The notes: generated from the letters alone by a model not told the origin. Shown: positions 11,194 to 51,100, numbered from the stretch's first letter. The stretch: DNA of 64,000 nucleotides from Dictyostelium discoideum (GCA_000004695.1 CM000152.2:3040001-3104000), one strand, 5' to 3'. Program-made: numbers and translations.

Positions 11194-12942
11194 TTATATT
11201 ATTCTTTTTTTTTTTTTAAAAAAACTTACCTTAATTGAAGAGAATTTTGATTTAAATTTAGGTGGATCAACTTCATTATTATTAATACTATTTAAAGATA
11301 ATTGATCAGGTAAATGAATGATTAAATGAGTTACTTCATCTGTATTGTTATTATAATTTGAGAATAAAGCATCTTCAACACCAACTTTACCAATGAAACC
11401 TAAAGTGAGTTTATTACCATTTCTATAATTATTACTAGTACTTCCATTTGTGAAATATCTTTTATTTTGTTCTTCAAAAGTTTTTAATTGATCGATTATT
11501 GCTTCTTTTTCATTATCATCAATTTCATCCAATAGACCACTGATAAAGGTTTCATTAGTGTAAAGATCAACCAATTGAGAATTGTCTTCCAATGATACCA
11601 TTGAACCTTTAATTTCCATTGGAAAAGACATAAAGATATAAGAGTGTAATGGATTGGTGAATGTTAGAAACACTTGAAATAGATCTTGATCAATCCATTG
11701 AATCTTTGAGATTGTAACACGTGGAATATAAGAGTATGCGAAATGAGATCTCTTAAATTCTATCTTTCCTGGATTTATATCTGGTTTCACCAATAATCTA
11801 TCACATCTCTTACATCTCTTTGATCTACGAGTTAACAATTGTCTATGTTGTGGTATCAATCCTTTCAATTCTTTACATTGATTTGAAACTTGATGATATC
11901 TTTGCATTAAATTACTAATTTCATCACAATCTTTAATTTTATTAATTTCTTCTAAATCAATATCATCATCATATAATTCATCATCACCATCACCACCACC
12001 ATCACCATCATCATTTGTTTTTTTAAATACCCTTGAGTCAATTCTCTTTTGTTGCATATCTTCAATATCTTGTGTTGTAATTGGTTGTGATTGTATTGAT
12101 TTCTTTATCATTTGATTTGTTAATAATAATGTTGATGATGATGATGATGTTGTTGTTGATGCTAATGGTGAAGTTGGTATTAATTTATTGTCAGGTAATG
12201 GGTGTGGTGTACTTGATTGAATCCAACGTTGATTTTCATCAGGTTTTAAAAAGTTTTTTCTTTGATTATATTTTTGATGTTTTGATTGTTGACCAAGGAA
12301 TTGTTTCATTGCTTGTGCTATTTTAATTCTTGTTAATGTTTTCTTATCTTTTAATGATGTTAACTCTATTGATTCCTTATTAACAACTTCCAATACTTTA
12401 TTGAATTGTAATTGTGATTCAGAGGATTCTTTACTATTCTTTATACTATGTGAATCGAATCTAAACTCTTTTTCACCCGAATTTATTGAATTCCATTTAC
12501 AAAATGCACAATTTAAAAAAAAAGTTTCATTACCAGTCGTTGCATTGGTACTTGCTGAATATGTTAAAATATTAAAACAAATTGGACAATCAAAACATTT
12601 TTTACATCTTTTTAAAAAAATAAATAAAAAAAATAAAAAAAATAAAAAGTTAATTTATATTTGTATATATATGTGTGTATGTTGTATGTTGTTTATTATT
12701 ACATACCTATTACCATTTAAATTTGCTTCTACGGATGAAACATGTTCTAAACAATTTGGACAATAAAAACAATCAATTTCTTCTGTGATACAAAATTTGC
12801 AATTTGTTTTTAAGCAACCACTGCAATAATATAATTCTGATACGTGATATGCCTTACCACAATTACAACTATACTTGATTATATTGTTATTTAAAAGGTC
12901 TTTATTAAACTGAAATGAATTTTCAACTCTTTTAGAATACAT
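11194..12942 (-). CDS. Dynactin subunit 4 (p62). Two exons: 12942..12707 and 12607..11194, with a GTATGT donor and AG acceptor on the minus strand.
   Basis: The N-terminal Cys-rich region IKYSCNCGKAYHVSELYYCSGCLKTNCKFCITEEIDCFYCPNCLEHVSSVEANLNGNR|CKKCFDCPICFNILTYSA...FFLNCAFCKWNS aligns with human DCTN4 [53 protein letters not shown]. Further on, LIPQHRQLLTRRSKRCKRCDRLLVKPDINPGKIEFKRSHFAYSYIPRVTIS aligns with human [50 protein letters not shown]. Confidence 0.85.
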
Positions 12943-14318: not shown

Positions 14319-17300
14319 AAAAAAAAAAACAAAAAAAACAAAAAAAAAAAACCAAAAACCAAAAAACAAATACTAACTTTTTTAAAATTTTTCTTTTTAA
14401 ATTTTATTATTGTTTTTAAGTGCATGGTTAACACCAGATTCAGTAACAGATTTTTTAGAAAACCACCCACATAAGAATCAACCAAAGAGTAAACAATGGC
14501 AAAAAGCATATAATGCAGCAATCAAATATTTAAAAAATTCAGAGAGTGAACCAGATAGTGATTCTGATGGAGATTATTCTGGTTCGGATGATTCAAATAT
14601 AGAGAGCGCATCCTCAAGTAGTGAGTCTGAGAGTGAAAAAGTTAAAACGTCGAAAAAATCAGAGAAATCAACCAGTGGTAGTAGTAGTATTATTAATAAT
14701 AGTAGTAGTAGTAGTAAATCATCAGATTCCAAAAAAAAATCATCATCATCATCATCGTCATCGTCATCATCATTATCATCAAACTTAAAATCAGAATCTA
14801 AAAAATCAACATCCTCATTAAAATCAAAATCTAATGGTAGCTCCAAAGTTAAAGCATCAAAACCAGATAAAACTCCAGAACCTATTAAAACAGAGTCTTC
14901 ATCCACAAAATCTGAAGGAAAAACGGAAAAGGCTAAATTGAAAAAAGAAACAGTATCACCAACATTGTCCTCGTCATCATCATCGTCATCAAAAAAGAAA
15001 TCAAGTACCAACAGTAGTAATGGAAAAAGAAAAATTAAAAGCATCAGTAGTGATAGTGAAAGTAGTGACAGTGATAGCGATAGTTTAAGTGATAGTGATA
15101 GTATGAGTGATTCAGATTTTAGCAGTAGTGAAGATGAGGAAAAACATAAAAAACATAAGAGGTTAAAGAAATTGGTAGATCAACCACCAAAGAAAAAAGA
15201 AAAACTTAGTAATGGTGGCAGTAAAAAAGAAATAGCAAGTAAATCTTCCAAAGTAACCACAGCCATTACTACAACAATTGCAGAGACGCCACAACAATCA
15301 ATAAAGAAATCATCCACATCATCATCATCGTCATCATCATCGTCATCACCACCCCTAAGGTCACCAATTACAACCACAACTACAACAACCACAACTACAT
15401 TAATGTCACCACCAACTCAACATCAATCCAATCAAAATTCACTCAGTAGTAGTAATAAACTTTTATCAAAATTAACAAATACAAAGATTCCAATTGTTTC
15501 ATCCTCTTCAACAACTACTACATCAAATGGAAATGGTTTGGGTAATGGTGGTTCTATAATAGGTGTCATTGGAAATAGTATAACCAACAATGGTAGTAGT
15601 GGTAATAGTAATAGTAGTAGTAATAGTATTAATAGCAGTAGCATCACCAATAGTAATAGTACAAATATCATTGATTTTTCAATAGATGATAAACCTTATT
15701 ATAAAGATCCACCCATTTATTCGACAGCAGCACCAACAAAAACAGGTAAATTAGGATCGAACCGAATTTCATCAGAACCTTCACCTTGGAGTATTGATAC
15801 CTCTGACATTAGACAGCAAAGTTCACCAACGATTCAAGCACACAACATGAGTGCTACAACCATTGGAGGAACCAGTATCAATGGAACAACTAGCAGTATT
15901 TATGACTCCTATACCAGTAAATATGGAATGGGTATCAATCCTGATCCATACACTAGTTACACAAGCAATAGCAGCGCAACTCGATATGTCGATGATTATT
16001 ATGCATCCTCATTATTTAAAGATCCATTACTTTCATCCAGTAGCACAACAACAACATCAACCACAACTACACCATTACCAAAAACCTATTACCAAACTTA
16101 CAGTGTAATAGATGTACAAAAATCACCTTACTCTTCATATAAACCAACTTCATCAATTTCATCTTCAACAACATCAACTCCCATTTCACTTTCAACTACT
16201 ACAACCACTTCTTCAACATCATCATCATCGTCATCATCAACACAACCACCACATAATCAATCATCAACCTCTTTGTATAGCCCACACAACCACCATCTAC
16301 ACCACCACAGCCATCATGATATTTTAGATAGCAGAATTTCACCTCCAAAACAGCATCCTATTGATCCTTACTATGAAGATGATTACAGAGATAGAAGGTA
16401 TAGCAGACCGCCATTACCACATCAACAACAACAACAACAGCAACAACAGCAACAACAACAGCAACAACAACAACCAATTTCACCATACTCAAATAGAAAT
16501 GATTTAGATAGAAGAGATCATTACCATGATTCATCACTTTCCCCATCACCCTATAAATCAAGAGATCAATCCCTCCCACCAAGAAGAAGGGACGATGGGT
16601 ATTTACCACCTCCATCACAAACTCAAACCAATTCTTCATCAACATTACCTCAAAACAGAGATTTAAGAATAAATGATTATAATGACAGAGATTTTAGAGA
16701 CAGCCATCCAAGAGATACCAGAACTCCAATTAGAGATTTGAGAGATCGTCCACCCCCACCTTCATCATCCTCATCATCACCTGCACCACTTGGTGGAGGC
16801 TCAAATTATAGAGATCCATATTATGATGGTAGAGGTAGAGGTTTGAGAGGAGGACCACCACCATACAGAGATAATCGTGATAACATTAGACCACCAGTAG
16901 ATAGATATAGAGATAACAACCGAGGTGGAGGTGGTGATTGGGATAGAGACCGTGATTGGGACAGAGACAGAGATAGAATTGATCATAGAGATCGTGATTG
17001 GGATAGATTGGATGACCGTGGTAGAGATAGGGATTTTAGAGATCGTGACATCAGAGACAGAGATTTCAGGGACCGTGATAGAGATTTTAGAGATATTCGT
17101 GATAGAGACCTCTGGGAGAGAGATAGATTATTGGATCGTGAAAGAGACCTCCGTGATAGAGACCTCTGGGAAAGAGATAGAATGTTGGACAGAGACAGAG
17201 AAAGAGATAGACTAGACAGACCAATCGATCATGTAAGGGATAGAGATAGACTTTTAGATGGTCGTGATGGTAGACTATCAATTGATAGTAGAGATAGAAT

Positions 17301-17688
17301 GTTGGATAGAAATGATAGAATTATTGATAATGGTAGAGATAGAGGTGATAGAATTATTGATAATGGTAGGGATAGAATATATTCATCTCAACAACAACAG
17401 CAGCAACAGCAACAACAACAACAACAACCACTTCTCCTACTTCAACATCATCAACCACAATCAAGCATTTTAACATCCTCATCCTCTTCATCTTCAACAA
17501 CTACAACCACTACAACAACAACTGTACCATCATCATCATCGTCATCCTCTTCATCTAATTTATTACCAACAACAACTTCAATAACAATAGCTTCAAACGA
17601 TATTTTATCATCGTCAAATCTTTTAAATGCTCCAATTACTCCAAGTAAAAGAGAAAGTAAATGGGATAAAGAATCAACTAATGGGTCC

Positions 17689-17719
<31 letters not shown>

Positions 17720-17739
17720 ATAATAATAATAATAATAAC

Positions 17740-17780
<41 letters not shown>

Positions 17781-17796
17781 TAATAATAATAATAAT

Positions 17797-17827
<31 letters not shown>

Positions 17828-17877
17828 GTACATCATCAGTTGGCACTACCTCAAAATCAATTACCCCAACAAAATAA
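14033..17877 (+). CDS. PWWP-domain protein, about 1200 aa. It is Ser-rich and low-complexity with an extended Arg-Asp (RD) dipeptide repeat. At least two exons: 14033..~14231 and ~14421 or 14438..17877.
   Basis: The N-terminus MKEDKKSTNGEYVAGTNFRYGQVVYGRMPGYPQWPARVHDPS...ILLHFFSSND is a PWWP motif in a PWWP-type beta-barrel context. An A-rich intron follows. The downstream frame AWLTPDSVTDFLENHPHK... runs to 17877. It contains poly-Ser, poly-Thr, poly-Gln and poly-Asn tracts and RDRDWDRDRDRIDHRDRDWDRLDDRGRDRDFRDRD... Confidence 0.7.
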
Positions 17878-19960: not shown

Positions 19961-20009
<49 letters not shown>

Positions 20010-20636
20010 TTGGGGGGTGTAGAGTGTGTTTAGTGACGTAATATATTTGTTGAGGTTTGATGGTAGTGCTACTGTGTGTAGTGGTGAGTTCCAGTGTTTG
20101 CTAAATCTTTCGAGTTGTAGGGAGATGATGTTTTTGAATTTTTTTATTTGTTCGTTGTTGGTTGCTTTTTTTTCTTGTCTGATTAGTTTGTATATGTTGT
20201 TTTTTGTTCTTTCCCAGGCTGCTGTTTGAGTTTTCTTTAGTTCGTGTACTAGTAGTTGTTTTCTTAAGTTTTTGAGTGTTATTCCTTCGTGGATTTTCTT
20301 GTTTCTTCTTCTCCAGATGTTTTCGCAAATAATGGCTATGGCGTTGGCTGTTAATGGAATGTCTAGTCTGTTGAAGATTTCTATTCCCCAATTGATTCTG
20401 GATCCTCCAGATTTTTCTTGAATGTAGTTGATGCACTCTTGAGTTTCTTTAATGTGTGATTTGCATTTGAAGAAGATGTGTTCTGAGGTTTCCTGTTCGT
20501 TACACCAGATGCAAGGGGCGTTGTGGATCTTTGGAAGAGCTTTAAGAGCTAATCTCCATAGGAGGTCTCTTCTTTTCAAGTTGACTATTTTCCTGATTTA
20601 TTTTAAAATGGACAGGAGCAAAAAAAACGAAGTTTC
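19799..20636 (-). mobile_element. 5'-truncated non-LTR (LINE-like, TRE-type) retrotransposon fragment. Contains the ORF2 C-terminus (20004-20579, minus strand) and a poly(A) tail of about 43 nt (plus 19963-20005), followed by 164 bp of unassigned sequence (19799-19962).
   Basis: The minus-strand ORF ...LALKALPKIHNAPCIWCNEQETSEHIFFKCKSHIKE... carries the classic LINE ORF2 C-terminal C-x2-C-x3-ET-x2-H-[IL]FF-x-C zinc-knuckle. Its TAA stop runs directly into a poly(A) tract of about 43 nt, seen as poly(T) on the plus strand. The element lies immediately upstream of tRNA-Asn with its 5' end facing the tRNA, as expected for dictyostelid tRNA-gene-targeted retroelements. The whole 838-bp block is flanked by the 42-bp direct repeat. 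Confidence 0.6.
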
Positions 20637-20761: not shown

Positions 20762-21340
20762 CGAAAAAACAGAAAACTAGAAAAAATCTCATTCAAAACT
20801 TCCATACAAACAAAAAACAATTCTCTTTATTAGATAATTTTTTAAATAAAAAATAAAAAAATAACTTTTTTAAAATTTTTTTTAAATAATGAAATTGTTA
20901 AAATGAGGGTAAAAATATTTATTTTAATATTTCAAAAGATTAAATTATTTATTTTTTCTATTTTTTTTAATTTTTTTTTTTTTTTTTTTTTTTTTTTCAA
21001 TAAAAGGTATTTTATAACATCAAGGATTAGCCACCTTTCGATATTCTTTCAATTATGTCATGTTAGTAAATTAAAAGGTTAATTTTTTATTTTATTTTAA
21101 AATTTTTAAATTTCCCAAACCCATCAAAGTATTTCATGACGAAAGCATTTAATGAAAAGTTGAATTGCTTAAAAAATTAATAAATTGATTTTCATTATTT
21201 TTTCACATTAACTAATTTTCAAAGATTAATGTGATAAAAAAAAATTATTTTTTTAATTTCCCAAACCTTTAAAAGCATTTCATGATGAAAAGTCAAATCT
21301 AACCCACCAAAACACAAATTCTTTGAAAATATTTCAAGTG

Positions 21341-21637: not shown

Positions 21638-23720
21638 ATGGAAGGACCATTAATTTTAGTTTTAGTAAAATTTTTTTTAAAGTTTATTGCTTATTTATTT
21701 TCTTTATTAGCCATACCTATTACACTTTATTCAATAGTTTTAAATGTATTGTATCATTTTTTTAATTTTTTTTTTTTTATCCTCACAAAAACCCCACAAA
21801 AACCACTAACTTTTTTTTTTTTTTTTTTTTTTTATTTTCAGAAAATATTAAAATATGATTGTAAAGATAGTCCAGGAGGGCATTTTTTAATATTTATACC
21901 AAGAATAATTTTGGTAATACCATTTTTCTTTTCATTCCCATTATTAGCATATTTATATGGATGGCTAGTTGATAAAGCAATTCAAGGTGCAGTTTATGTA
22001 CCATTTGTAATTGCAATTGGATTTTTATTTGCAATAGTAATTGGTTATTGGTTCACAAGATCAATGAGTTTATTTAAAGATTCAATTAGTAAAATGAAAA
22101 TAACGTAAATATATATTTATAAAGAAGAAAAAAAAAAAAAAAAAAAAAGAATAATTACTAACCCATTTCAAAAATAAAGTGGAGATGAAAGTTATTTTAA
22201 AGGACTTGGAGAAAGTCTTTTAGATATTGGTGCAGTATTTGCATTTTTTATATCAATTATTACAATAGTTAGAATTCCATTCATGTTAATGGCATTAGCA
22301 AAAAGAAGTACTTTTGAGTATGATAAAAAGTCAATTAGAAAGAATTTATTCATTCATATGTTTTTAATCATTTTTGATATTTTATCATTACCTTCACTAT
22401 TAATTGTTTTATTAACAATTTTAAGAGCTGGTTCATTATTTTCAAAAATTAAAAAAGTAAGTTTTTATATTATTTTTATTTATTTATCAATTGGTTCCAA
22501 AAAAATATTATTATTATTATTATTTTTTATTTTTTTTCTAATCATTTTTTTATTAATTATCAAAAAAAGGATTATTCAACACCATGGAGAATATGTTTTA
22601 ATTTAAATCTTAGATTAGAAATTTTAAAAAATGCAATAATTGTTTTCTTAGAATTTGGAGTAATGTTATTAAGTTTTGTTTTAATTTTAGCACCATGGAG
22701 AATTCCAACTGCAATTAAAGAATTTAAAAAAGGTAAATCTCAAGGTGAAAAATTTGGACAATACTTTGTTGAAGAATTAAATGCATTAGTAGATTTAGGT
22801 GTAATTTTAATATGTACACCATTACTTGTTACTCTTTATAGAATACCTGTATTAATTCATAAATTTCGTAGAAATGATGTTGTAAGTATTAATTATTCTT
22901 ATTATTATTATTATTATTATTAAAATTTACAATAGAATTAATTTATTAATTTAACTTTTTTTATACAAAAAGACAAATGCAAGAGAAAGAAGAATTGAAG
23001 CATTATTTCAAACATTATTTATTATAGTTGATTTCTTTATATTATTATTTTCAATATTTATATTGATTACAATTTATAGAGTACCAAGAACCATTAGAAA
23101 GATTTTAGATTCACCACATAGATATTATGAAAAGATTACAATTCAATTCTTAAAGATTTGGGCAGATGTACCATTCTTGTTTATGGGATTAATTGTAACT
23201 ATTTTATTATGGAGAGCACCATTTATGTATACTCAAATGTATAGAGCAACCACTAAAAGAGATAGAAGATCAATTATTAAACGTCATTTCCTTTGGTTAT
23301 GGATTGATATTTTAGATTTACCATTTGTTTTAAGTAGTTTCATTATCTTATTAACATTATGGAGATCCTATGCATTCGTTTGTGGTTTCATTACAATGGA
23401 TACTCGTAAAAAGCAAAGAATATTCGTTATTAAACAAATCTTTTATTGGTTTATGGATATACCAACTTTTATTGGTCTATTATTAATTACTATCACAATT
23501 TATAGATTACCAAAAACCATAAAATTATTAAGAAGTTATTTTAAATATACAAATTTTGATATGGATTTATCAAAAGTTAATTCCTCCTCTTCAAATACCT
23601 CAAATACTTCTAGAAGAGATGCATATACTTTTGAAGATTCACAAATACCACCAATACCATCAGAAGAAGAAAATGAAGATAATCCAACACCAGTAATTCA
23701 AAATAATCAATCAAAATCAA

Positions 23721-23755
<35 letters not shown>

Positions 23756-26512
23756 TTAGAAATTGAAGAAGAAAGATTTTCATCTTGGCGTAAAGTTGTA
23801 TTAAGTCAATTATTTTTATTATTAATTGATATACCATTCCCAATATTAATCTTAATGACAATGTGGAGATTACCAATTTTAATTAAGAGATTAAAAGAAA
23901 TTAATGATCCAATTAGAAAATATTCATTAAGAAGATTATTAATTTTAAGATATGTTTTATTGACATTTTTAGATTTGCTTTGTTTGGTACCAACATTATT
24001 TATATTGTTAACAGGTTGGAGAATACCATCATTCATATCAATGGTAAAGCAATACCAACGTGGTGACAATGAACATAGATTACTTGGTTTACTATTTTGG
24101 GATACTCTAGTCGATATACCATTTGTATTGATGGGTTTAATTACAATACCATTCCTTTGGAGAGGTCCATTTTTAATTAAAACCATTTTCATCAAACGTG
24201 AATGTAAAACCGATAAAGAAGCAAGAATAATGGCAGCAAAATATTTGGGTGTATGTTTATTGGATTTGGTAATATTCTTGGAATTAATTATAATCACTTG
24301 TACAATGTGGAGATTTAAAACTTTTATTAAAACATTTAAAGATGAATTAAAAAGAAGAGAAACTGATAGATCATCACATAAATTCTTTCAAACTATTTGT
24401 TTCTTTTATTCAACATCAATCACTTGTATTATCATTGTAGTTGATATTTGGAAATCTATTCAAATTTTAATCATTTGTTTATTCATTAAACAAATTGCAC
24501 CACTTTATAGAGCAATTAAAACCAAAATTGCAGAAACACCAGATTTCACATTGGCTGATACTTTGAAAATTATAGATTACTATTTCCTTCATACTCTTAT
24601 GGATGTACCACATGTTTTCTTAATACCAATTAAATTATTGGCTTTCCCATTCCTACCAATTCATTTATATTTAAAGTATAGAATTAAAGCAAAACAAAAT
24701 GAACAAAGAAAATTACAATTGGAAAAGCAACGTGAAGAAATTCAAATTCATATTCAAAGACAATATGATAATTTGGATAATGATTTACCAATTATACCAA
24801 TACCAAATAATCCAACATTGGTTAAAGATGAAGATTTAATTGAAACATCTACTACAATGTCATTTATTCATTATCCAATACTTTGGTTACATGATACTTC
24901 AAAAGAATTATTAAATTATTATGAATTGGATAAATTCTTTATAATTAATATGTTTGGATTAGGTTTAATAGTAATTAATGAACTTTCATTGATTGTTGTA
25001 TTGGTAAATTGTTTATACATGTTTTTGGTTACACTTGGTTCACCAGCATGGAGAGGTACAATGGAAAAATATGGTTGGGATGCATTGGGTAAAGCTTCAG
25101 GTCCAATGGTGATTTTCGAATATATTACAGTGGTATTACAAGCTTTATTATTCCCAATATTCATTTTAATTCAAATTGCAATCGTACTATTACCAACTCT
25201 ATTGGCACTTGGTTTTTATCCATCACCAAATCTCGATTTCGTTCAATATTGGAAAGGTTTCTTTAGTGAACGTTCTTTCTGGAGAGAGGCTTCCCAATTT
25301 TCAAGTGGAGTTTGGGTGGCTCAAGCATTTTGGTTCTTGGTTTGTGTTGTATCTTGGCATGTAACATTTAAAGTCGCTAAAAAACATATACCAATTTTCT
25401 CACCATGGAAATCATATTATTGGTTAGTAAAGAAAGTATTCCATGGTAGAATTTGGTTCTGCTATAGATGGTTATTGGTTCAAGGTACTAGAGTTTGTTA
25501 TAAATTAAGAAGAGCTTGTTTAATTGGTGAATTGTTAATGTTCCCATTATTCATCATTTGGACTTGTTGGTCATTCATTATACCAATTGTAACAAAGATT
25601 TATTATATTTTCATTGCTTCTGGTATCATTTCATTAGGTTTAATAGTTATTGCTTATAAAGTTGTAAAAGAGAATTGGAATGATAAAGCTGCCAATGGTG
25701 GTCAAGATGGTGGTGCTGATAAGAATCAATTATTAATGAATCTACAATCGGTAGAATGTGAATTGCCAGAAAGTGGTGGTATAGTATTTAAATTCCAAGC
25801 TAATAAATCATATGATCAATCGTTAATTCAAATTAAAGATGCACGTCTTTCAATTGAAGGTGAATCACTTTGGGAGGCAATCTATCAAATTGTTGGTAAA
25901 ACTAAAGTTAGAGCGGCATTAATGGTAGTTGGTTATCCAATCTCTTTGGTACCAATGTTTTTAGATGTTGATCAAGTTAATCAAACTACTCAAAATTTGG
26001 ATGATTCTGGTAGAACTCAAAGAACATGTTCTTTCCAATTAAAAATTGGTATTGAAGGTAGTAAATTCTTAATGAAAAAGAAATTAATTACAAGATTATT
26101 AAATCAAATTAGAGAAATTAATAATCAACCATTCGAAATTGTAATTGAATATGGTAAAAAGAATTTTGGTTGGGAAAAACATGGAAATATACTTAAATTT
26201 AAAACTTCTGTTACAACATTATTTGATAATACAATTAATTCAATTAATAATTATGAAAGTTATTTTGATAATAATAATAATATTCGTTTAAATGATATTG
26301 GTACACCATCTTATAATAATAATAATAATAATAATAGATTATCTCCAATAGCTCCAGCCAGAAATAATACCTCATCAAGTGTTAGAAATGCAAGAAATAG
26401 TGTTGAAATTCAAAGAAGTCATTATACCATAAATAATGATGAAATTGATCCTGAACAAATTGAAATTTTAAGACAAATCCAACTTGAGAATGAAAAAAGA
26501 AAACAACAACAA

Positions 26513-26548
<36 letters not shown>

Positions 26549-26824
26549 GAAGAAAATGAAAATAAACAAGAACAAGAACAAGAACAAGAACATCAACAAG
26601 AACAAGAACATGAACAAGAACAAGGACTTGAAGAGCAAGAGCAAGAACAAATTAGTCCAGTGGTTGAATCAACATCATCATCATCATCATCCCAATCACC
26701 AATTGAATCATCAATTCAACCAGTGGTTCAAGAACAATCAATTACTATGGATGATTATATTTTAGATGATGGTCAAGATACTGAAGAATTTTATAAAAGT
26801 TTAGATAAAAGTAATAATGTGTAA
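21638..26824 (+). CDS. Very large polytopic membrane protein of about 1600 aa. It is built from at least 13 tandem two-helix hairpin repeats, each ending in a [LMIFGP]-[WY]-R-x-P motif, with a hydrophilic Q/E-rich C-terminal domain. Five exons: 21638-21745, 21842-22104, 22180-22456, 22570-22881, 22973-26824.
   Basis: Repeats ...VRIPFMLM, PWRICF, PWRIPTAIKEF, LYRIPVLIHKF, IYRVPRTIRKI, LWRAPFMYTQM, LWRSYAFV, IYRLPKTIKLL, MWRLPILIKRL, GWRIPSFISMV, LWRGPFLIKTI, MWRFKTFIKTF and others are each preceded by hydrophobic helices (L..LD....L.....IL). The introns use canonical GT..AG sites in matching phases. The first intron (21746-21841) could alternatively be read through in frame. No similarity to a named family was recognised. 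Confidence 0.65.
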
Positions 26825-27275
26825 ATTAGTAAAAAAAAAAAAAAAAAAAAAGATAAAAAAATAATTCAAAATAACAATTTAGCTTTATATTTATTTATCT
26901 ATTTAATATATAACCATAAAAAAATAAATTATTAATACTGTTATATATTAATATTGAATTATTTTTTTTTTTTTTATAATTTTATTTTTTTAAAAACTTT
27001 TTTTTTTAGTTGATGAAGCAAATTCAAAAAAAAGAACTACATCTACAACAACAACACCTACAAAATTAAGAAAAAGAAATATGAAAAAATAACAACAATT
27101 GTTTTAAATACTCTTTATCTCTTTCTTCTGTATTTCTAAGTGTACTTAATTTTTTAAAAATTGTTTTTTTAATTTTTATTTGTTTCTTAAAAAAAAAAGA
27201 AAGAAAGAAATAAATTATATTATTTTATTGGTATATTATTATTATTTTTTTTATTTTTTTTATTTTTTTATTTTT

Positions 27276-28277
27276 TTATAAAATTGATTCAAATAATTTA
27301 ATTGCTTCTTTTGGAGCTGTTTTTTTAATTACAATTGAAAAATGACAATGATTATTAGTTTCATAACCGTTATTTGTTAAAATGATTGGCCAATTTTTTA
27401 ATTTTGATTCTAATAAAAGGTCATTTGGTGGAAGGAATCTAACTTGACCTTTAATGACTTCACAAAGGTCAAAACATTTATCAAATGATTTCATATTGAA
27501 TTTTTCGCACATAACTCTAATTATGGATTGGCAATTATCTGATGCAGTTACTTTAACAGATTTATAAGAATCATTTCTAAAATAAATTTTAATAACTTCA
27601 CTACCAGAACCGGTTAAACCTTTAATTGGACTTTCTACATATGGCGATGATTGCAATTGTACCATTTTTGAATTTGCATTTGGTTGTTGTGATATGAAAT
27701 ATTGATTGGAACTATTTTTTGATTCTTCATGGTGATGTTGTAAAATTGATTTTATAGCATGTTGATATTCTTCTTTTTTTTGATCTTGCTCTTTTTTAAC
27801 TTCTAATAGGGTAGCTTCGGAATTTGATATTCTTCCTTCTGCAACGTCAACCATTTCTTTTTGGAACCAAGATTGTGCTCTATCCAATGAAGTGAATCCA
27901 TTATTATCTTTTAAATTAATATTTGCACCTTGTCTAATTAACCAAAGTGCTAAAATATCGTATCTACCAGTTACCAATGAATGAAGTGGTGTCCAACCTC
28001 TATCGTCTTGAACATTAATATCACATCCTCTAGATACTAATAGTTCCAATACTTGTTTATGTCCTCTTGAGGATGCAATATGAATTGGACATGTACCTTT
28101 TTCATACTCTCTCATATTAATATCAACACCACAATCAATCATTTCTCTAACTTTTTTAACATCATTATTTGAAACTCCTTTAAATAAATCATAATCATAT
28201 TTTTCAATTCTATAATTACTTTTGATTTTATTAGTTGATGATGATGTCATTGGACTATAACTTGAATTACTAATCAT
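27276..28277 (-). CDS. Ankyrin-repeat protein with a C-terminal Ras-association/ubiquitin-like domain. Single exon, 333 aa.
   Basis: Three ANK repeats (GTCPIHIASSRGHKQVLELLVSRGCDINVQDDRGWTPLHSLV..., NLKDNNGFTSLDRA). The C-terminal block EVIKIYFRNDSYKSVKVTASDNCQSIIRVMCEKFNM...FDLCEV has RA/UBL-like character. Confidence 0.75.
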   Translation of the reverse strand: MISNSSYSPMTSSSTNKIKSNYRIEKYDYDLFKGVSNNDVKKVREMIDCGVDINMREYEKGTCPIHIASSRGHKQVLELLVSRGCDINVQDDRGWTPLHSLVTGRYDILALWLIRQGANINLKDNNGFTSLDRAQSWFQKEMVDVAEGRISNSEATLLEVKKEQDQKKEEYQHAIKSILQHHHEESKNSSNQYFISQQPNANSKMVQLQSSPYVESPIKGLTGSGSEVIKIYFRNDSYKSVKVTASDNCQSIIRVMCEKFNMKSFDKCFDLCEVIKGQVRFLPPNDLLLESKLKNWPIILTNNGYETNNHCHFSIVIKKTAPKEAIKLFESIL

Positions 28278-29886: not shown

Positions 29887-31171
29887 AATAATTAAATTGA
29901 AAAAAAAAAAAAAAAAAGATGATGGTAAATTATTTGCATATTGTTATCCAACAAATAAAAAACATGAAGATGTTGTATTGAAATCATATGAGATGTTTGT
30001 GCATTTGAATGCATTAAATCCATTAGCATTTCAAAGTTTAAGAAGAATGGAAGTTGAAGTTGTACAAATGGCAATTAAAATGTTAAATGGTGGAAATGAA
30101 GCTAGAGGTACAATGACTACAGGTGGCACAGAGAGTATATTGATGGCAATGAAAGCCTATAGAGATAGAGGATATGAAGTCGATGGTATTAGAGAACCAG
30201 AGGTAGTTTTACCAATTTCAGCACATCCAGCATTTGAAAAGGCTGCAAAATATTTTGGAATTAAAACTAGATATGTTCAATCTGTGGATCCAGTGAGTGA
30301 TTTAGTGGATTTAAAAGAATATGAATCAAAAATCAATAGAAATACCATACTATTAGTTGCATCAGCTCCACAATATCCTCATGGATTAATGGATCCAATC
30401 GAGTCAATTGGTAAATTGGCAGAGAAATATAGAAAACCATTTCATGTTGATGCTTGTATTGGTGGTTTCTTTTTACCATGGTTAGAGAAATTAGGTTATC
30501 CAATTCCATGTAAATTTGATTTTCGTGTTCCATCAGTCACATCGATTAGTGCTGATATTCACAAATATGGCTATGCAACAAAGGGTTCATCAGTTTTGTT
30601 ATTCTCTTCTAATGAATATCGTAAATATCAATTCATTGCCTATACTCAATGGCCAGGTGGCTTATTCGTCTCTCCATCAATGTTGGGAACTCGTTCAGGT
30701 GGCAATATAGCAGCTGCTTGGTCATCTTTAGTCTCGATGGGTGAGAACGGATTCATGGAATATGTTGATAAAATTATGAAAACCTCAATTGCAATTCAAA
30801 AAGGTATCGTCTCATTACCATTGGGTAACGTTGAAATTATTGGTTCAAATCCTGTAATGTCAATCATTTCATTGAGATCTAAAGTTGTCAATATTCATGC
30901 GGTTGCAGACTCTATGGAAAAACATTTCTCTTGGAAACTTGAAAGACAACATAGACCAAATAGTATTCATATGACTTTAACACCATCTCATATTGGTATT
31001 GAAAAGGTTTTCTTGGAAAATTTGAAATTCTCAATTCAAGAAGTTATGGCTGATCCAAATTTAAGTAAAAAAGGTTCTGCTGCTATGTATAATGGTATCA
31101 ATAATATACCTTTAACTGCAATAGCTGATGATTTCTTAATTGAATTTTTATCAAAAACTTATTCAACTTAA
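29484..31171 (+). CDS. sglA: Sphingosine-1-phosphate lyase (PLP-dependent, fold type I, group II decarboxylase family). Two exons: 29484-29826 and 29919-31171.
   Basis: N-terminal membrane anchor FITFSGLAIVAYAY. SPL-family motifs GGNEARGTMTTGGTESILMAMKAYRD, HVDACIGGF, SADIHKYGYATKGSSVLL (the PLP lysine) and WPGGLFVSPSMLGTRSGG. A phase-1 intron joins ...DINPG|DDGKLFAYCYP. The symbol is the dictyostelid S1P-lyase name, assigned from memory. Confidence 0.8.
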
Positions 31172-31896: not shown

Positions 31897-34445
31897 ATGG
31901 AAGAAAAAACTACAGTTTCAATTATAAATGAAGAAGGTGGCAATATTGACGAAAAAGAAAAATGTATTAATAATAACACAAATGATAATAAAAATAAAAA
32001 TGAAAATGAAAATGAAAATGAAAATGAAAATGAAAATGAAAATGAAAATGAAAATAAAAATGAAAATGAAAATGAAAATGAAAATGAAAATGAAAATGAA
32101 GATGAAGAATTAGTCGAAATTGATGAAAAGGTTAATAATAATAATAATAATATAGTCAATAGTTTAGAGAATGTTCAATTAGATGATACAGATGTAACAA
32201 AAGTAGAACAAAGACAATCAATGTGGATTGGTTCACAACCTGCTAAAAAAGAAAGAGAAGCACCAAGAATTTCAACTTCATCAAATCTTAGACAATCTTC
32301 AAATGATTTAAATTCTTCAGGAGGTACTAATACTCCAAAAACACCAAGATCAACAACTCCACCACAAAATGAAAATTCATGTAATACTACTGCTACCACT
32401 ACTACCATTACTACTTCTGTAACAACAACACCAACACCAACAACAACACCAGCAACAACAACAACATCATCAAGTTTATCATCATGGTGGAATGGATTAA
32501 GTTTTAAATTAAGAACTCCACCAACAACACCATCAAATTCACAAATATTTACACCAACATTATTAAATGAACAACAGGATGAGGTTGAGGATCAAATATT
32601 TACACATTCAGCAATTGATTCAGCAACTAAAATCGTTAGAGAGGGTTATTTAAATAAGCAAGGTCATCTAAGAAAGAATTGGTTATGTAGATATTTCATA
32701 TTGACTGAAACCTCATTAGAGTATTATAAAGACAAAGGTAGAGAATTCTTAAATAGAATTCCATTGAGCGAATGTTCAATAACAATGGCAGAAATTGAAA
32801 TAAAGAAATCACTATGCTTCAAGATCACTCATAATCCTACGAAAAGACCATTTTATTTATTCTCCAATGAAAGAGCAAACACTAACGAATACGAACGTGA
32901 TAGTTATGAATGGATTGGGTCAGTTCAAGAGATTATCGATTTACAAATACTAAATCTTCAACAACAACAACAACAACAAAATCCTGATGGTTTAACAAAT
33001 TTAGATCCTTCAGCTTCAATCGTTACAGAATCTCATAAAAACTATGAATTGGTTCATTGTATGTCACATGCTTTACTCTTTTCTTTAGGTAAAATTTCTG
33101 CTGCTCAAATGACTGATATTTGTATGGAAGATTTCCAATCTTCTGAAACTTTTAATATAAATAAAGAAGTTACATCTTCAAACTCAACAACACCACTATC
33201 ATCTTCACCATCACCTGAAAGTTTAATAAATCAACAATCACAATCACAACAACCACAATTACAACCACAATCACAACAAAATATAAATACAAATAATAAT
33301 AATAATAATAATAATAATTTAATAAATAGTGGTAATAATATACCGAATATGACAAAATCACTATTTTCATATAAATTTACAGATTATTCACCAAAAGTTT
33401 TTAGGAAAATTAGAGAACTATCAAATGTAAATTCAGCGGATTATATGATATCATTAACTCAAAATACTTTAACTGAAGAACCAACTCAAGGAAAGAGTAA
33501 TTCACTATTCTATTTCACTTCTGATAAAAAATTACTTATTAAAACAATTACAACTACTGAATTTGAACAATTAAAATCAATTTTACCAAATTATTATTTT
33601 GTATGTTATTTATTATTATTATTATTATTATCTTCATACACTATATAATAACAATAATAATAACATTATTTTTTTATTTTTTTTTTTTAATAATATTTAG
33701 CATTTATCACAAAATCCAGATTCATTAATTGTAAAATTTTATGGTTTACATTATATTAGTCCATCAAAAATGAGAAATACATATTTTGTTGTAATGGAGA
33801 ATATATTTACAGATATTCATATGGATGAAATTTATGATTTAAAAGGTAGTACACTTCAAAGAAAAGCTCAAGAAGGTAAAAGAGTATTAATGGATTTAGA
33901 TTTTTGTACTAGAATTTTCATTTCTGATGAAATGAAATTTAAATTTTTTAAACAAATTGAAAGTGATTGTAATGTAAGTTTAATAATAAATAATAAATAA
34001 TAATATATATATATATATATATATATATTGAATCTAAATATATTTTTTTATTTATTTATTTATTTAGTTTTTAGAGAAGAATCAGTCAATGGACTATAGT
34101 TTATTATTAGGAATTCATTATTTAAAGGGTGGTAAGAAAATTGATGAAAAAGAAGTTACAGATAGTAAACAAGCATTATTTAAGAGAGAATTGGGTGGAG
34201 TGATTGCAAGAACTCATGATGGTGAACTTTATGATAAGGTTTACTATATTGGAATCATTGATATTTTAACAGTTTATAATATTAAAAAACAAATTGAACA
34301 TACTTATAAATCAGTGGCATATGATACAACAGATTCAATGTCTGCTGTAAATCCAAATACTTATACTAAACGTTTCCAAAAATTCATTCAAAAAATTACT
34401 GGTTGGAATAAAAATAATAATAATAATAATAAAATCAATGAATAA
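31897..34445 (+). CDS. Phosphatidylinositol-phosphate 5-kinase (PIPK family) with an N-terminal PH domain and an acidic (NE)n repeat. Three exons: 31897-33600, 33701-33973, 34068-34445.
   Basis: PH domain REGYLNKQGHLRKNWLCRYFILTETSLEYYKD...LCFKITHNP. PIPK core KSLFSYKFTDYSPKVFRKIRELSNV...SNSLFYFTSDKKLLIKTITTTEFEQLKSILPNYYF|HLSQNPDSLIVKFYGLHYI...YFVVMENIF...|FLEKNQSMDYSLLLGIHY...YYIGIIDILTVY. The Asn-Glu repeat is encoded by (AATGAA)n at about 31990-32100. Confidence 0.8.
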
Positions 34446-47741: not shown

Positions 47742-48055
47742 TTAGTTATCGCTATTATTAATATTTTGAGGAGTTCCATTGTTATTTGAAGTTGATGGTG
47801 AATTTGGAGAATTTGAGGGTTTTGGTGAAATGATTAAAGGGGCTGAACGTTGAGCACCTGACATACTAATGTTGCTTGGATTATTACCTCTATTTACAGA
47901 ATTTGGTGAGAGTGGATATTGTGGGTTTGGTGGATTAGAATTTGTTTGTACATCATCCATGTCATCAGAAATAATTACAGAACTTTGTTGATTGGTTGGG
48001 TTTGATGTATTCATATTATTATTATTATTACTATTATTATTATTATTATTATTTA

Positions 48056-48107
<52 letters not shown>

Positions 48108-51100
48108 TGATAAAATTGGTGAAGATGTTGAAGAATTAAAATTTGTTGGTTGATTGTTATTACTATTATTATTATTATTATTACTATTATTATTGTTATT
48201 ATTATTATAATCATTATTATTGTTATTAATATTATTATTAGATTCACTATCACTAGTTGATAAAGTTGTTGTTGTACTAGTAGTTGTAGTTGTAGTTGTT
48301 ATTGAGGTATTTTCAATAGTTTGAGATTGTTGTGGAGATTGTTGTTGTTGTGCTTGTTGAGCTTGTTGTTGTTGTTGTTGAAGTTGTTTTTGTCTTTCTA
48401 ATTGTTTATTACTTAAAGAATTTGTAATATTATTATTAATATTATTCATATTATTATTAATAAAGTTAATTGTATTTAAATTATTTTTCTTTCCTCTTTT
48501 ATTTGGATTACTGATGAAATTATTGATATTGAATTTTGGAATTGCAGTTTCTTGAGTTTCACTGAAATGACCATAGGAAATATTAGCAAGATGAATTTCC
48601 TCATCGGTATCTTCGATGAGTGCTTTAAGATGAGAATTAACACAACGTTGTAATGAATTTGTTTTTTCGATACCATAACCACCTTCCAATACAGAGATGA
48701 TTCTACCTTTACAATATTTGAAAGCGACAGTTTTAATCATTTTAGTAATGACGAAATAATCCTCTTCATTTAATTTCAAACCATTGGTTGGATCATCTTT
48801 ATGGCCATCGAAACCAGCTGAAAGGAAGATTAATTGTGGTTTGTAAGCTTCAAGTCTTGGAATGATTTTATTCATCCATTGTTGAAGGAAAACTGCGGAA
48901 CCTGTATTACGTTTCAAGCCAATATTTAAAATGTTACCATCGAATTGACCCGACACCTCATCGATATCACCAACATCTTGACCGGTACCAGGATAAAAGT
49001 AACGTTTTTCATCACATACATGAATTGAAATGAAGAGGAAATTGTCATCACCACTTAGGATCTCTTGAGTTCCATTACCATGATGAACATCGAAATCCAC
49101 CACAGCAATTCTACTATAACCGGCGGTCAATGAAGCATACTTGGCACCAATGGCAACGTTATTGATTAAACAATAGCCTTGAGATGGCGCATCACTTGTT
49201 CTACCATAACGACCAGCATGATGACCAGGTGGACGAATGGCACAAAAAGCACGAGTATAACCAGAACGACTAACTGAATCAACGGCGGCACAAACTGAAC
49301 CACTTGCTCTCAATGCGGCTTTAATGGAACGATGTGAAACAAAGGTATCGTAAATGTTATCATCATCACCCTCGAAATCTTTATGAGAGGCAACAGTAAC
49401 CATAGCACCACTTTTATCACTCTCCAAATGAGTTTCAAACTCTGAATTCTCTGGTGGTAAACTAGTTTCCAACTTTTTAATATAGTTTGCATCGTGGACG
49501 GCCATAACATAACGCATATCGACCTCTGGTGGATTGTCAAAGATATCAACCAATGGATTGCTTGCAAACTCGTTTATACAACTGACAGCGACTTGAATAC
49601 GATCAGGTTTCTCCAAATGAAAGTTTGGAACTTTATGTTGCATGCAAATCTTGTGATAGATTGCAATGGTTTTAAATTTATTCTTTATATCAACTGTGGT
49701 TGGAACGATTACAGGTTGACCATCCTCGCCCATTACTGTGGTTGTAGTGTTTGGAATTGCATTATCCAAAGCATTTGGTGGATGTGGTATTTGTGTCTCC
49801 AATTTATTTTGAAGTTGTGATAGTTTATTATTGATTAACTTTTCACATTCACCAACTCTTGATTCATAAAAGTAATCATGGATCCAATAGATTGATTCAA
49901 CCATTGTAATCAATAACTTGAGAGCGTAAATCTCATTCTCTAGGGTGGCTTGTTGAGATTTTGTCTCCTTTTCTTTGTCAGAGATACCATTTTTAATTAA
50001 TAACATATCGACTTTTAGCTCACTTGATTTCTTTTGAAGAGTATCACGAATTGATTCGTGAGCTGCAATTGCACCACGTACTTTACTTAATGAATCTAAT
50101 AGCTCTACCTCTTGATATTTAAATTTATGAATTTCATCCAAGTTTGCTTTGATTTGATGTTCAATTTGTTCAATCTCTGTGCTAACTTTATTACTTCTAA
50201 GACTTTCCTCCATGAGATTATCCTCGAGATCATGTTGATAATCGGCGATAGCACGTAAAGCAACTTCAATTGAATAGATTAAAGCATTTCTGGTTGAACA
50301 ACATTCTTTACCAATTAAACCTGCAGTTTCATGATTTTCAAATACCATTGTGATTGCTCTTTCCAATGGTACATTACGAGCGTTGGTTGTCATATTTTCA
50401 AGGGCACCCTCTTCCAATGATTTCAACTCTGAATACATCTCAACCACTGATTGTGATGATAATAAATTTCTCTTTATTAAATTTGATAATTCTTCAATCA
50501 TTCTCCAAACTAAACCATAATCTGATGCCCAACGTACAGTTTTTATTCTCATCATTAAATCAACAAAGTTATCAATACGTTCTTTAATTTCATCTGGTGG
50601 ATTTTGAGATAATGTTGAAAAGAATTTAACTGCTGTAAAAGTTTGATCAACGAAATTATCAATTGGATTCAATGGTTCTCTATTTGGTGATAAAACTGAT
50701 TCAATTAAATTATTAAAATTACCATTATTTTGTTGTTGATGTTGATGTTGTTGTTGTAATGCTTTCAATTGTTGAAGTTGAGCTTGTTGTTGTGATAAAC
50801 GAGCTTGTTGATGAGTTTGTTGTAATTGTTGTTGTTGTTGTACCATTAATGTATTTGGTGATGGTGGTGTTGCTGAATAACCCTGTTGTTCAACCACAAC
50901 CGTTGTATTTTTAATAATACCTCCACCAGCAGCACCACTACTACCAACCATCACTGAATTACCAATAATTGATGTTGGTGATGGTGGTGCACTATCTTCA
51001 TCATTTCTCTTTTTAGTATACTTTCTAGTTTCATAAATATCTGATGATGCATTAATTTTCTTTCTTAATCTTTTTTGATTTTGTTGATTATTTGGTGAAC

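Follow-up and report, generated by a model that had tools for sequence, protein, structure and literature searches.

The question raised by the five-exon gene on the plus strand at positions 21638-26824 of a 64,000-nucleotide stretch of the Dictyostelium discoideum genome (CM000152.2:3040001-3104000, the window, from whose first letter all positions are counted) is what kind of protein it encodes and whether that protein belongs to a known family. The DNA of the window is very AT-rich and eukaryotic. The gene is DDB_G0280375 (UniProt Q54VR7), for which the database label in strain AX4 is 'hypothetical protein' only. A sequence-only reading of the window had proposed one gene for a giant integral membrane protein made of at least 13 tandem helical hairpins, each ending in W-R-x-P, and had suggested a rare, uncharacterised, transporter/channel-like family. 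The single gene, with five exons and 1603 amino acids, and its tandem W-R-x-P-ended repeat are borne out by the analysis described here, and 14 units can be counted. The rarity, the transporter/channel likeness and part of the description of the unit have to be revised.

The tandem repeat is above chance. The units lie in amino acids 129-899 with a period of 45-52 residues (~47) and form two blocks, of 8 and 6 units, parted by a 74-residue low-complexity linker. In a non-circular test a hidden Markov model (HMM) built from one block of units was scored on the other block, with 200 shuffles of the region as the control. The HMM from units 1-8 detected units 9-12 at 11-20 bits and the HMM from units 9-14 detected units 6-8 at 17-24 bits, against a best score of 7.3 bits among the shuffles. 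Asp (or Glu) is present in all 14 units and Arg in 12 of the 14. The weakest is unit 13, which scored 34.6 bits with a self-trained HMM and was missed by the half-model. The linker between the blocks shows 23-30% identity with distant dictyostelids versus 38-60% in the repeats, and no secondary structure is predicted for it. All six motifs by which the repeat had originally been recognised are present, in units 1, 3, 6, 9, 10 and 12 (Table 1), and within the 64-kb window the repeat unit was found in DDB_G0280375 only.

The anatomy of the unit was pooled from 1092 units of 164 family proteins anchored on the Asp, numbered as position 13, and on the Arg. Position 0 is Lys or Arg in 57% of these units. 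Positions 1-12 are amphipathic, with 3, 4, 7, 8, 10, 11 and 12 apolar and 5, 6 and 9 polar. Pro follows the Asp at position 15 in 44% (D-[ILV]-P is common), with a further Pro at 18 in 23% and Gly at 20 in 17%. Positions 14-28 are almost free of charge (charged residues at no more than ~1% per position), with a mean Eisenberg hydrophobicity of 0.80 and a hydrophobic moment of 0.15; position 26 is Thr or Ser in ~65% and position 28 Trp or Tyr in ~83%, directly before the Arg at position 29. Pro is found at position 31 in 41% (R-x-P is common), and positions 30-40 form a basic amphipathic stretch with a hydrophobic moment of 0.42-0.45, after which comes a short basic loop. Each unit thus described has one apolar stretch of ~22 residues, broken by D-x-P and flanked by amphipathic segments (hydrophobic moment 0.30-0.45). 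Where two hydrophobic helices and a basic loop had been read in each unit, there is a single apolar stretch, and what had been taken for the loop is a short basic amphipathic helix together with a loop.

In a 98-unit alignment no columns other than those of the Asp and the Arg are near-invariant. Without anchoring, Asp is conserved in 97% and Arg in 97-98% of 1287-1877 units from the 164 proteins, and the exact spacing of 16 residues from Asp to Arg is found in 1102 units. Because DDB_G0280375 has 14 apolar stretches (elsewhere up to ~30) of ~22 residues of L/I/V/F, its product is, judged by sequence, an integral membrane protein.

The repeat is widespread. A unit profile of 48 positions was run with HMMER exhaustively against 1.84 billion representative proteins. 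It matched 671 protein clusters at E<=1e-3, of which 344 reach E<=1e-10 and 105 reach E<=1e-30. The supposition of an uncharacterised family is supported, and the description of such proteins as rare is wrong. Family proteins reach 3416 amino acids and have up to 34 matched stretches, with roughly 3-34 copies per protein; with the threshold set at 10 bits, they have a median of 8 units and at most 28. A single-sequence search returned weak matches to proteins of 1600-2200 amino acids from Symbiodinium, an alga-like EukProt entry and metagenomes, in each of which the Dictyostelium unit HMM detects 3-9 units. Word-indexed homologue searches added little: a 98-unit alignment gave 74 candidates, none significant, and a 28-protein family alignment gave 4 matches, three of them already known members.

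All members with an organism name are eukaryotic, and none of them has a studied function. In Amoebozoa they come from dictyostelids, Balamuthia, Mastigamoeba, Mastigella, Pelomyxa and Soliformovum; in Metamonada from Anaeramoeba and Paratrimastix; in Discoba from the diplonemid Artemidia; in CRuMs from Diphylleia; and in dinoflagellates from Symbiodinium and Polykrikos. An orphan lineage, 'Eukaryota sp. TZLM3-RCL', also has a member, as does Metazoa in the form of the cnidarian Hydractinia symbiolongicarpus (XP_057314194.1, P0167), a RefSeq protein on a 33-Mb scaffold. The unit profile thus places DDB_G0280375 in a large family that is eukaryote-wide and lacks a description. If the family is defined by three or more tandem ~47-residue units with D-x15-R inside an apolar stretch, the 14 units of DDB_G0280375 make it a member. 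No Pfam match backs automatic names such as 'homeobox protein', 'Polyprotein' and 'TatA' carried by some relatives. It was also observed that a cnidarian subfamily of ~1650-1800 amino acids (XP_057314194.1 and the metagenomic P0012, P0013, P0031, P0032 and P0042) opens with 8-9 units right at the N-terminus and continues with a C-terminal region that is long and distinct and in which the alpha/beta and polytopic domains described below were not detected.

Searches for known relatives agreed with the earlier impression that no named family matches. With Pfam-A nothing above the cut-off was found for the whole protein, nothing beyond an F-box and a zinc finger for 28+4 relatives, and nothing consistent, even at E<=10, for 28 sequences of the alpha/beta domain and 13 of the polytopic domain. 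Against the PDB, neither the dictyostelid C-terminal profile nor a broader profile of the polytopic domain gave a match at E<=10, and the alpha/beta-domain profile gave nothing significant, its best match being titin at E = 0.044. No relevant paper was found in the literature on the gene, its orthologues or the motif. The transporter and channel superfamilies (MFS, ABC, RND/SSD, voltage-gated-like, etc.) gave no Pfam or PDB sequence or profile match. AlphaFold models made with 8-sequence alignments had predicted local distance difference test (pLDDT) scores of 46 for the repeats and 51 for the C-terminal part and were unusable for fold assignment. At the detectable level of sequence and profile, the family is therefore unrelated to anything described, though a distant fold relationship is possible. 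The gene itself has long been annotated as a hypothetical open reading frame; the new part lies in recognising the repeat together with its invariant Asp/Arg signature, the associated modules and the wide distribution.

Several weak matches were rejected as compositional. PFF1_TM, the best Pfam match, reaches 16 bits where the cut-off is 32.3 and falls mostly on the linker, with the end of unit 8 included, and the single-sequence PDB matches to eL19, Cns1 and MBP fusions lie on the poly-Q/N tail. The designed transmembrane helical bundle TMH4C4 (PDB 6m6z) has a Leu-rich membrane helix and is the only PDB sequence touched by the unit profile (E = 0.006, 19 bits), but the match covers 24 residues, no stretch passes alone and it is not homology. 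TatA/Hcf106 is similar in having ~15 almost charge-free residues and, after a hinge, a basic amphipathic helix, and one relative (P0026) is automatically named 'TatA'. However, no Pfam TatA match was found in the query, in 28 relatives or in P0026 itself, and TatA is a bacterial or plastid oligomerising protein of ~50-100 amino acids whereas the present units are covalently joined in tandem, eukaryotic and of another signature.

The array is followed by conserved, non-repetitive modules. The polytopic domain, here called CTM, is the best-conserved part of the protein among dictyostelids (52-70% identity), with the motifs N-E-L, TLGSPLW, LQxLLFP, F.P..AYxW and RRxC..GE.L..P.F..W..WP and conserved polar residues in its hydrophobic segments. 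The alpha/beta domain, SOL, is predicted by AlphaFold to have the order b-b-b-a-a-b-b-a-b-b, with block pLDDT mostly 53-76 and 40-45 in one loop. A hydrophilic tail of about 400 residues had been read in this part of the protein: it contains the conserved SOL, and CTM had gone unmentioned, while the last ~200 residues are indeed low-complexity and rich in N/Q/E, with 14-41% identity to more distant dictyostelids. At the other end, amino acids 1-125 contain no recognisable repeat units and score below 0 bits with the repeat HMM.

Among the 164 family proteins, HMMs found SOL in 66 and CTM in 36, including proteins of Anaeramoeba, Balamuthia and Mastigamoeba; 20 proteins have both, and CTM precedes SOL in all 20. 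The order in Amoebozoa is the array, then the polytopic domain and the alpha/beta domain. In a second architecture 3-17 detectable units (usually 5-9) are followed by the alpha/beta domain and then by 12-17 other hydrophobic segments. An F-box lies between the repeats and the polytopic domain in Balamuthia (P0015, amino acids 1541-1586) and Mastigella (P0021), and a RanBP2-type zinc finger lies directly after the polytopic domain, at the extreme C-terminus, in the metagenomic relative P0026 (amino acids 3005-3030). F-boxes and RanBP2 fingers are cytosolic or nuclear modules, so the segments that flank the polytopic domain, and hence the alpha/beta domain, would be cytosolic. The same modules hint at ubiquitin-system or Ran/ubiquitin-binding connections in those lineages.

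How a unit with one apolar stretch sits in the membrane can be answered tentatively. The geometry preferred here, with a little less than even confidence, is a zig-zag clasped by Asp and Arg. Each unit would be one long kinked membrane helix and consecutive units would be antiparallel, with Arg29 of one unit no farther than about one helical turn from Asp13 in the following unit, so that the two charges neutralise each other as buried inter-helix clasps. The 16-residue spacing would be fixed because both neighbours must stay in register.

An apolar length of 22 residues is canonical for a single spanning helix and favours one helix per unit. The low-confidence AlphaFold model has one helix of ~37-47 residues in most of the first eight units, and two or three helices in several later units. 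First coupling analyses, made on HMM-trimmed units, had too few complete rows. In the anchored sets, couplings within the unit fall at helical spacings (i+3/4/7/10; pairs 3-10, 6-10, 10-20, 23-26, 23-33, 24-34 and 27-34) and run across both Pro motifs. Couplings between consecutive units were examined in ~416 effective sequence pairs with 30 shuffled-partner controls, the maximum of which was 1.31. Seven inter-unit couplings exceeded this maximum and six of the seven have position sums of 33-42; these six are 26-10' (3.16), 36-6' (2.51), 23-10' (1.93), 28-10' (1.48), 36-2' (1.42) and 2-36' (1.33). Such sums suggest antiparallel packing of neighbours, and the sum for Asp13 and Arg29 is 42. The top-ranking Asp13-Arg29 'coupling' in the anchored sets is an artefact of the anchoring and was ignored.

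A number of observations weigh against the zig-zag. The coupling data are thin at this number of effective pairs, the shuffle control removes phylogeny, the end-to-end pair 2-36' is barely above the control, and the two strongest couplings, 26-10' and 36-6', fit a hairpin geometry equally well. An Asp-Arg contact lies beyond the reach of covariation, as both residues hardly vary: loss of Asp13 was not associated with loss of Arg29, whether within one unit or between neighbours, at a variation of only ~3% each. Both AlphaFold models are poor (pLDDT 46 and 51). The 392 short inter-unit loops contain on average 5.6 K+R versus 2.6 D+E, 89% of them are net positive, and the charge does not alternate from loop to loop (lag-1 autocorrelation +0.47). 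The zig-zag violates the positive-inside rule, because basic loops would lie on both sides of the membrane. Furthermore, there is no significant two-unit super-period (offset-2 similarity is slightly higher, p = 0.6; lag-2 spacing correlation 0.20, n = 85), and no preference for even numbers was seen either in the unit blocks between long loops or in the count of hydrophobic segments before the alpha/beta domain, although noise in the segment calling keeps this from being decisive. The missing period and even preference count against the zig-zag because an array of spanning helices is expected to show both.

It is these charge and periodicity results that speak for a different arrangement, which we regard as possible but less likely than not. 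Here each unit would form a short helix-turn-helix, with its turn at D-x-P, that dips into the membrane from the cytosolic side and comes back out on that side. The array would then be fourteen wedges, like a poly-reticulon or a caveolin-type insert, bending or marking curved membranes. All inter-unit loops, at net +3, would be cytosolic as the positive-inside rule demands, and neither two-unit periodicity nor an even or odd preference of the blocks would be called for. The helix breakers at positions 15, 18 and 20 fall close together near the centre of the apolar stretch, position 15 is the midpoint of the intra-unit coupling 10-20, and the strong couplings between units are as well placed as in the zig-zag. 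However, the two arms would be only ~10 and ~13 residues long, the first with polar positions 5, 6 and 9, and so too short to cross the bilayer; the near-invariant Asp would be unpaired at the deepest point; the co-conservation of Asp and Arg at a fixed spacing of 16 would be left unexplained; and no series of antiparallel couplings within the unit was found.

Comparison with known hairpin proteins gives a similarly divided picture. Reticulon, REEP and caveolin share with the present unit an apolar stretch with a central helix breaker and basic and aromatic flanks, and the unit would allow a cytosolic position of both ends and a possible role in membrane curvature. Their hairpins, in contrast, have ~30-35 apolar residues, occur 1-2 times per protein and contain no buried invariant acid, against ~22 apolar residues, an Asp at position 13 and up to ~30 tandem copies here, and none of these families matches in Pfam. 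The helical hairpin originally proposed is thus one of two live topologies, with the charge statistics in its favour and the apolar length, the Asp/Arg logic and the low-confidence AlphaFold secondary structure against it. A beta-hairpin in which Asp13 would pair with Arg29 at the base of a single unit was rejected, since the larger set contained no 14-28, 16-26 or 18-24 series of couplings.

Whichever geometry applies, the array has the look of a scaffold. Copy numbers differ about tenfold between homologues, whereas the C-terminal modules are conserved and non-repetitive, which makes a transporter or channel role of the array itself unlikely. For the polytopic domain such a role is conceivable, though nothing found here supports it. 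In the zig-zag preferred here the array would be a long, expandable ribbon embedded in the membrane, a structural or membrane-deforming scaffold with a logic like that of the Piezo blade. The ribbon would carry the conserved C-terminal polytopic core and the putatively cytosolic alpha/beta domain, and these two would be the likely seat of any specific activity.

The resemblance to Piezo extends to several features. Both are giant polytopic proteins with a long N-terminal array of repeated membrane units before a conserved C-terminal membrane core, both have amphipathic helices flanking the membrane helices, and the curved 'blade' scaffold is a plausible analogy for the array. There are also differences. 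A Piezo unit is a four-helix bundle of ~200 amino acids present in a fixed number (9), whereas here a unit of ~47 amino acids with one apolar stretch is present roughly 3-34 times. Piezo has a large extracellular cap, whereas CTM has no loop longer than ~45 amino acids between its hydrophobic segments, and Piezo does not have the Asp/Arg signature. No Piezo family appeared in the Pfam matches of the protein or of the 28+4 relatives, and no Piezo chain in the PDB profile searches at E<=10.

The same layout, repeats before a conserved membrane core, could be taken as a sign of a transporter or channel in which the buried Asp of the repeat helices, the polar residues of the polytopic domain or both line a path for ions or solutes. 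One buried acidic residue per helix, ~97% conserved, and the polar residues in the hydrophobic segments of the polytopic domain (N-E-L, Q, R-R, G-E) would suit such a path. We nevertheless consider this quite improbable. No sequence or profile similarity to any such family was found in Pfam or the PDB, and the variable number of repeats and the many members without the polytopic domain point to a scaffold and not to a defined pore. The transporter/channel likeness first suggested for the protein is therefore not upheld, as copy numbers of this range are unlike the fixed architecture of transporters.

A further-reaching proposal, offered as a speculation that is more probably wrong than right by a wide measure, is that these giant proteins form a pan-eukaryotic and possibly ancestral superfamily based on a novel type of membrane repeat, in which single helices are zipped antiparallel by one buried Asp-Arg pair per unit with basic loops on both faces. 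The resulting expandable, Piezo-like ribbon would sense or impose membrane shape or tension and would gate or position the C-terminal core.

The structure of the gene was examined against database models and orthologues. The model is a single open frame of 1603 codons with four introns of 75-113 nucleotides, all GT..AG, and 1578 amino acids of it, from IPITLYSIV in exon 1 to the C-terminal KSNNV and mostly in exon 5, are identical to the deposited AX4 protein. Orthologues with 39-98% identity are found in D. discoideum strains, D. citrinum, D. firmibasis, D. purpureum, Polysphondylium violaceum, Acytostelium and two further dictyostelid transcriptomes. In eight dictyostelid orthologues the sequence stays colinear through all the exon junctions, and hence one gene holds all five exons, as had been supposed.

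Database gene models differ at both ends. In the AX4 reference model the first exon is at ~20332 (20332-20364, plus strand), 1.3 kb upstream, and the protein starts MAMALAVNGMS. This exon falls inside a minus-strand open reading frame at 20004-20579, and it is instead the exon at 21638 (MEGPLILVLVKFF...) that is conserved in orthologues from five species, its sequence being kept in those of D. citrinum, D. firmibasis, P. violaceum and Acytostelium. Conservation thus suggests that the 5' exon of the AX4 reference is probably mis-annotated. At the 3' end some database models bypass the stop: they splice from 26811 (acceptor 27009) or 26821 (acceptor 27034) to a mini-exon and end ...RKRNMKK. The C-termini of P0001, P0002 and P0166 match the stretch 27010-27092, and the model for D. 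citrinum has an equivalent; those for D. firmibasis and D. purpureum end ...KSNNV, like the long open reading frame with its stop at 26824. By eye, the mini-exon up to 27092 looks less AT-rich than the flanking intergenic DNA. These differences leave the finding unaffected. An artefact, be it separate genes joined into a chimera or hydrophobic low complexity arising by chance in an AT-rich genome, could appeal to the disagreement of the models at their ends, but is so improbable that it can be set aside given the colinear orthologues, the repeat cross-validated against shuffles and confined to this gene in the window, and the same invariant residues in distant eukaryotes.

Table 1. Exons of DDB_G0280375, repeat units and other parts of its predicted product, with positions in the window.
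Feature	Position	Strand	Amino acids	Remarks
Exon 1	21638..21745	+	1-36	MEGPLILVLVKFFLKFIAYLFSLLAIPITLYSIVLN; ATG, GT donor at 21746
Exon 2	21842..22104	+	37-124	AG acceptor, GT donor, frame kept
Exon 3	22180..22456	+	124-216	junction colinear with orthologues
Exon 4	22570..22881	+	217-320	
Exon 5	22973..26824	+	321-1603	plus TAA stop 26822-26824
Possible extra 3' mini-exon	27010 or 27035 to 27092	+		...TTSTTTTPTKLRKRNMKK, then stop; in some database gene models
N-terminal hydrophobic region	21638..22183	+	1-125	three hydrophobic segments, 3-36, 48-75 and 82-108 (hydropathy)
Repeat unit 1	22193..22333	+	129-175	...SLLDIGAVFAFFISIITIVRIPFMLMAL...; HMM 49 bits; contains VRIPFMLM
Repeat unit 2	22340..22581	+	178-220	...IIFDILSLPSLLIVLLTILRAGS...; spans intron 3
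Repeat unit 3	22618..22755	+	233-278	...VFLEFGVMLLSFVLILAPWRIPTAIKEF; Glu in place of Asp; contains PWRIPTAIKEF
Repeat unit 4	22759..22990	+	280-326	...ALVDLGVILICTPLLVTLYRIPVLIHKF; spans intron 4
Repeat unit 5	22994..23137	+	328-375	...IIVDFFILLFSIFILITIYRVPRTIRKI
Repeat unit 6	23135..23272	+	375-420	...IWADVPFLFMGLIVTILLWRAPFMYTQM; contains LWRAPFMY
Repeat unit 7	23279..23419	+	423-469	...IDILDLPFVLSSFIILLTLWRSYAFV
Repeat unit 8	23420..23560	+	470-516	...WFMDIPTFIGLLLITITIYRLPKTIKLL
Linker between blocks	23561..23782	+	517-590	low-complexity, acidic/Ser/Asn
Repeat unit 9	23795..23935	+	595-641	...LLLIDIPFPILILMTMWRLPILIKRL; contains MWRLPILIKRL
Repeat unit 10	23939..24076	+	643-688	...LTFLDLLCLVPTLFILLTGWRIPSFISMV; contains GWRIPSFISMV
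Repeat unit 11	24089..24220	+	693-736	...DTLVDIPFVLMGLITIPFLWRGPFLIKTI
Repeat unit 12	24227..24364	+	739-784	...VCLLDLVIFLELIIITCTMWRFKTFIKTF; contains MWRFKTFIKTF
Repeat unit 13, degenerate	24410..24556	+	800-848	...IIVVDIWKSIQILIICLFIKQIAPLY; Asp kept, W-R replaced
Repeat unit 14, last	24566..24709	+	852-899	...TLMDVPHVFLIPIKLLAFPFLPIHLY; Asp kept, Arg lost
Charged linker	24710..24853	+	900-947	KLQLEKQREEIQIHIQRQ...; probably helical; poorly conserved outside close species
Conserved C-terminal polytopic domain (CTM)	24854..25672	+	948-1220	~270 residues; 5-7 hydrophobic segments
Conserved soluble alpha/beta domain (SOL)	25724..26212	+	1238-1400	~165 residues; invariant Trp and Pro, E-Y-G motif
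Low-complexity tail	26213..26821	+	1401-1603	poly-N, poly-Q, (EQ)n, poly-S; end ...FYKSLDKSNNV

The gene context within the window gave no functional hint for DDB_G0280375. Neighbours at 27276-28277 (-), 29897-31171 (+), 31897-33648 (+), 47742-51581 (-) and 11194-12393 (-) are ordinary, unrelated eukaryotic genes, whose products are, respectively, a protein with ankyrin repeats and an RA domain, a PLP-dependent decarboxylase, a protein with a PH domain and PIP5K, a histone deacetylase and dynactin p62. Nearby, at 14410-17877 (+), lies the longest open frame of the window after DDB_G0280375 and the histone deacetylase gene; its 1155 codons give no Pfam match at E<=1e-5, so that it stands for a second large, uncharacterised protein. 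Two similar copies of a ~45-nucleotide sequence ('atttcccaaac...aaag.atttcatga.gaaa') at ~21108-21160 and ~21258-21300, 340-530 nucleotides ahead of the start codon, might be either a promoter element in two copies or a dispersed repeat of small size.

The above results place at least several hundred giant membrane proteins in a group without a Pfam model, a solved structure or a paper, and one of them is encoded in the genetically tractable Dictyostelium, where the function of DDB_G0280375 is directly testable. The family also poses a puzzle for the rules of membrane proteins, as one must accept either a long series of breaches of the positive-inside rule or many short hairpins with an Asp at the tip, and either outcome for the topology would be instructive. 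If the proposal of a ribbon zipped by Asp and Arg were true, polytopic proteins would have a structural principle not described before, and membrane mechanics a new class of machinery.

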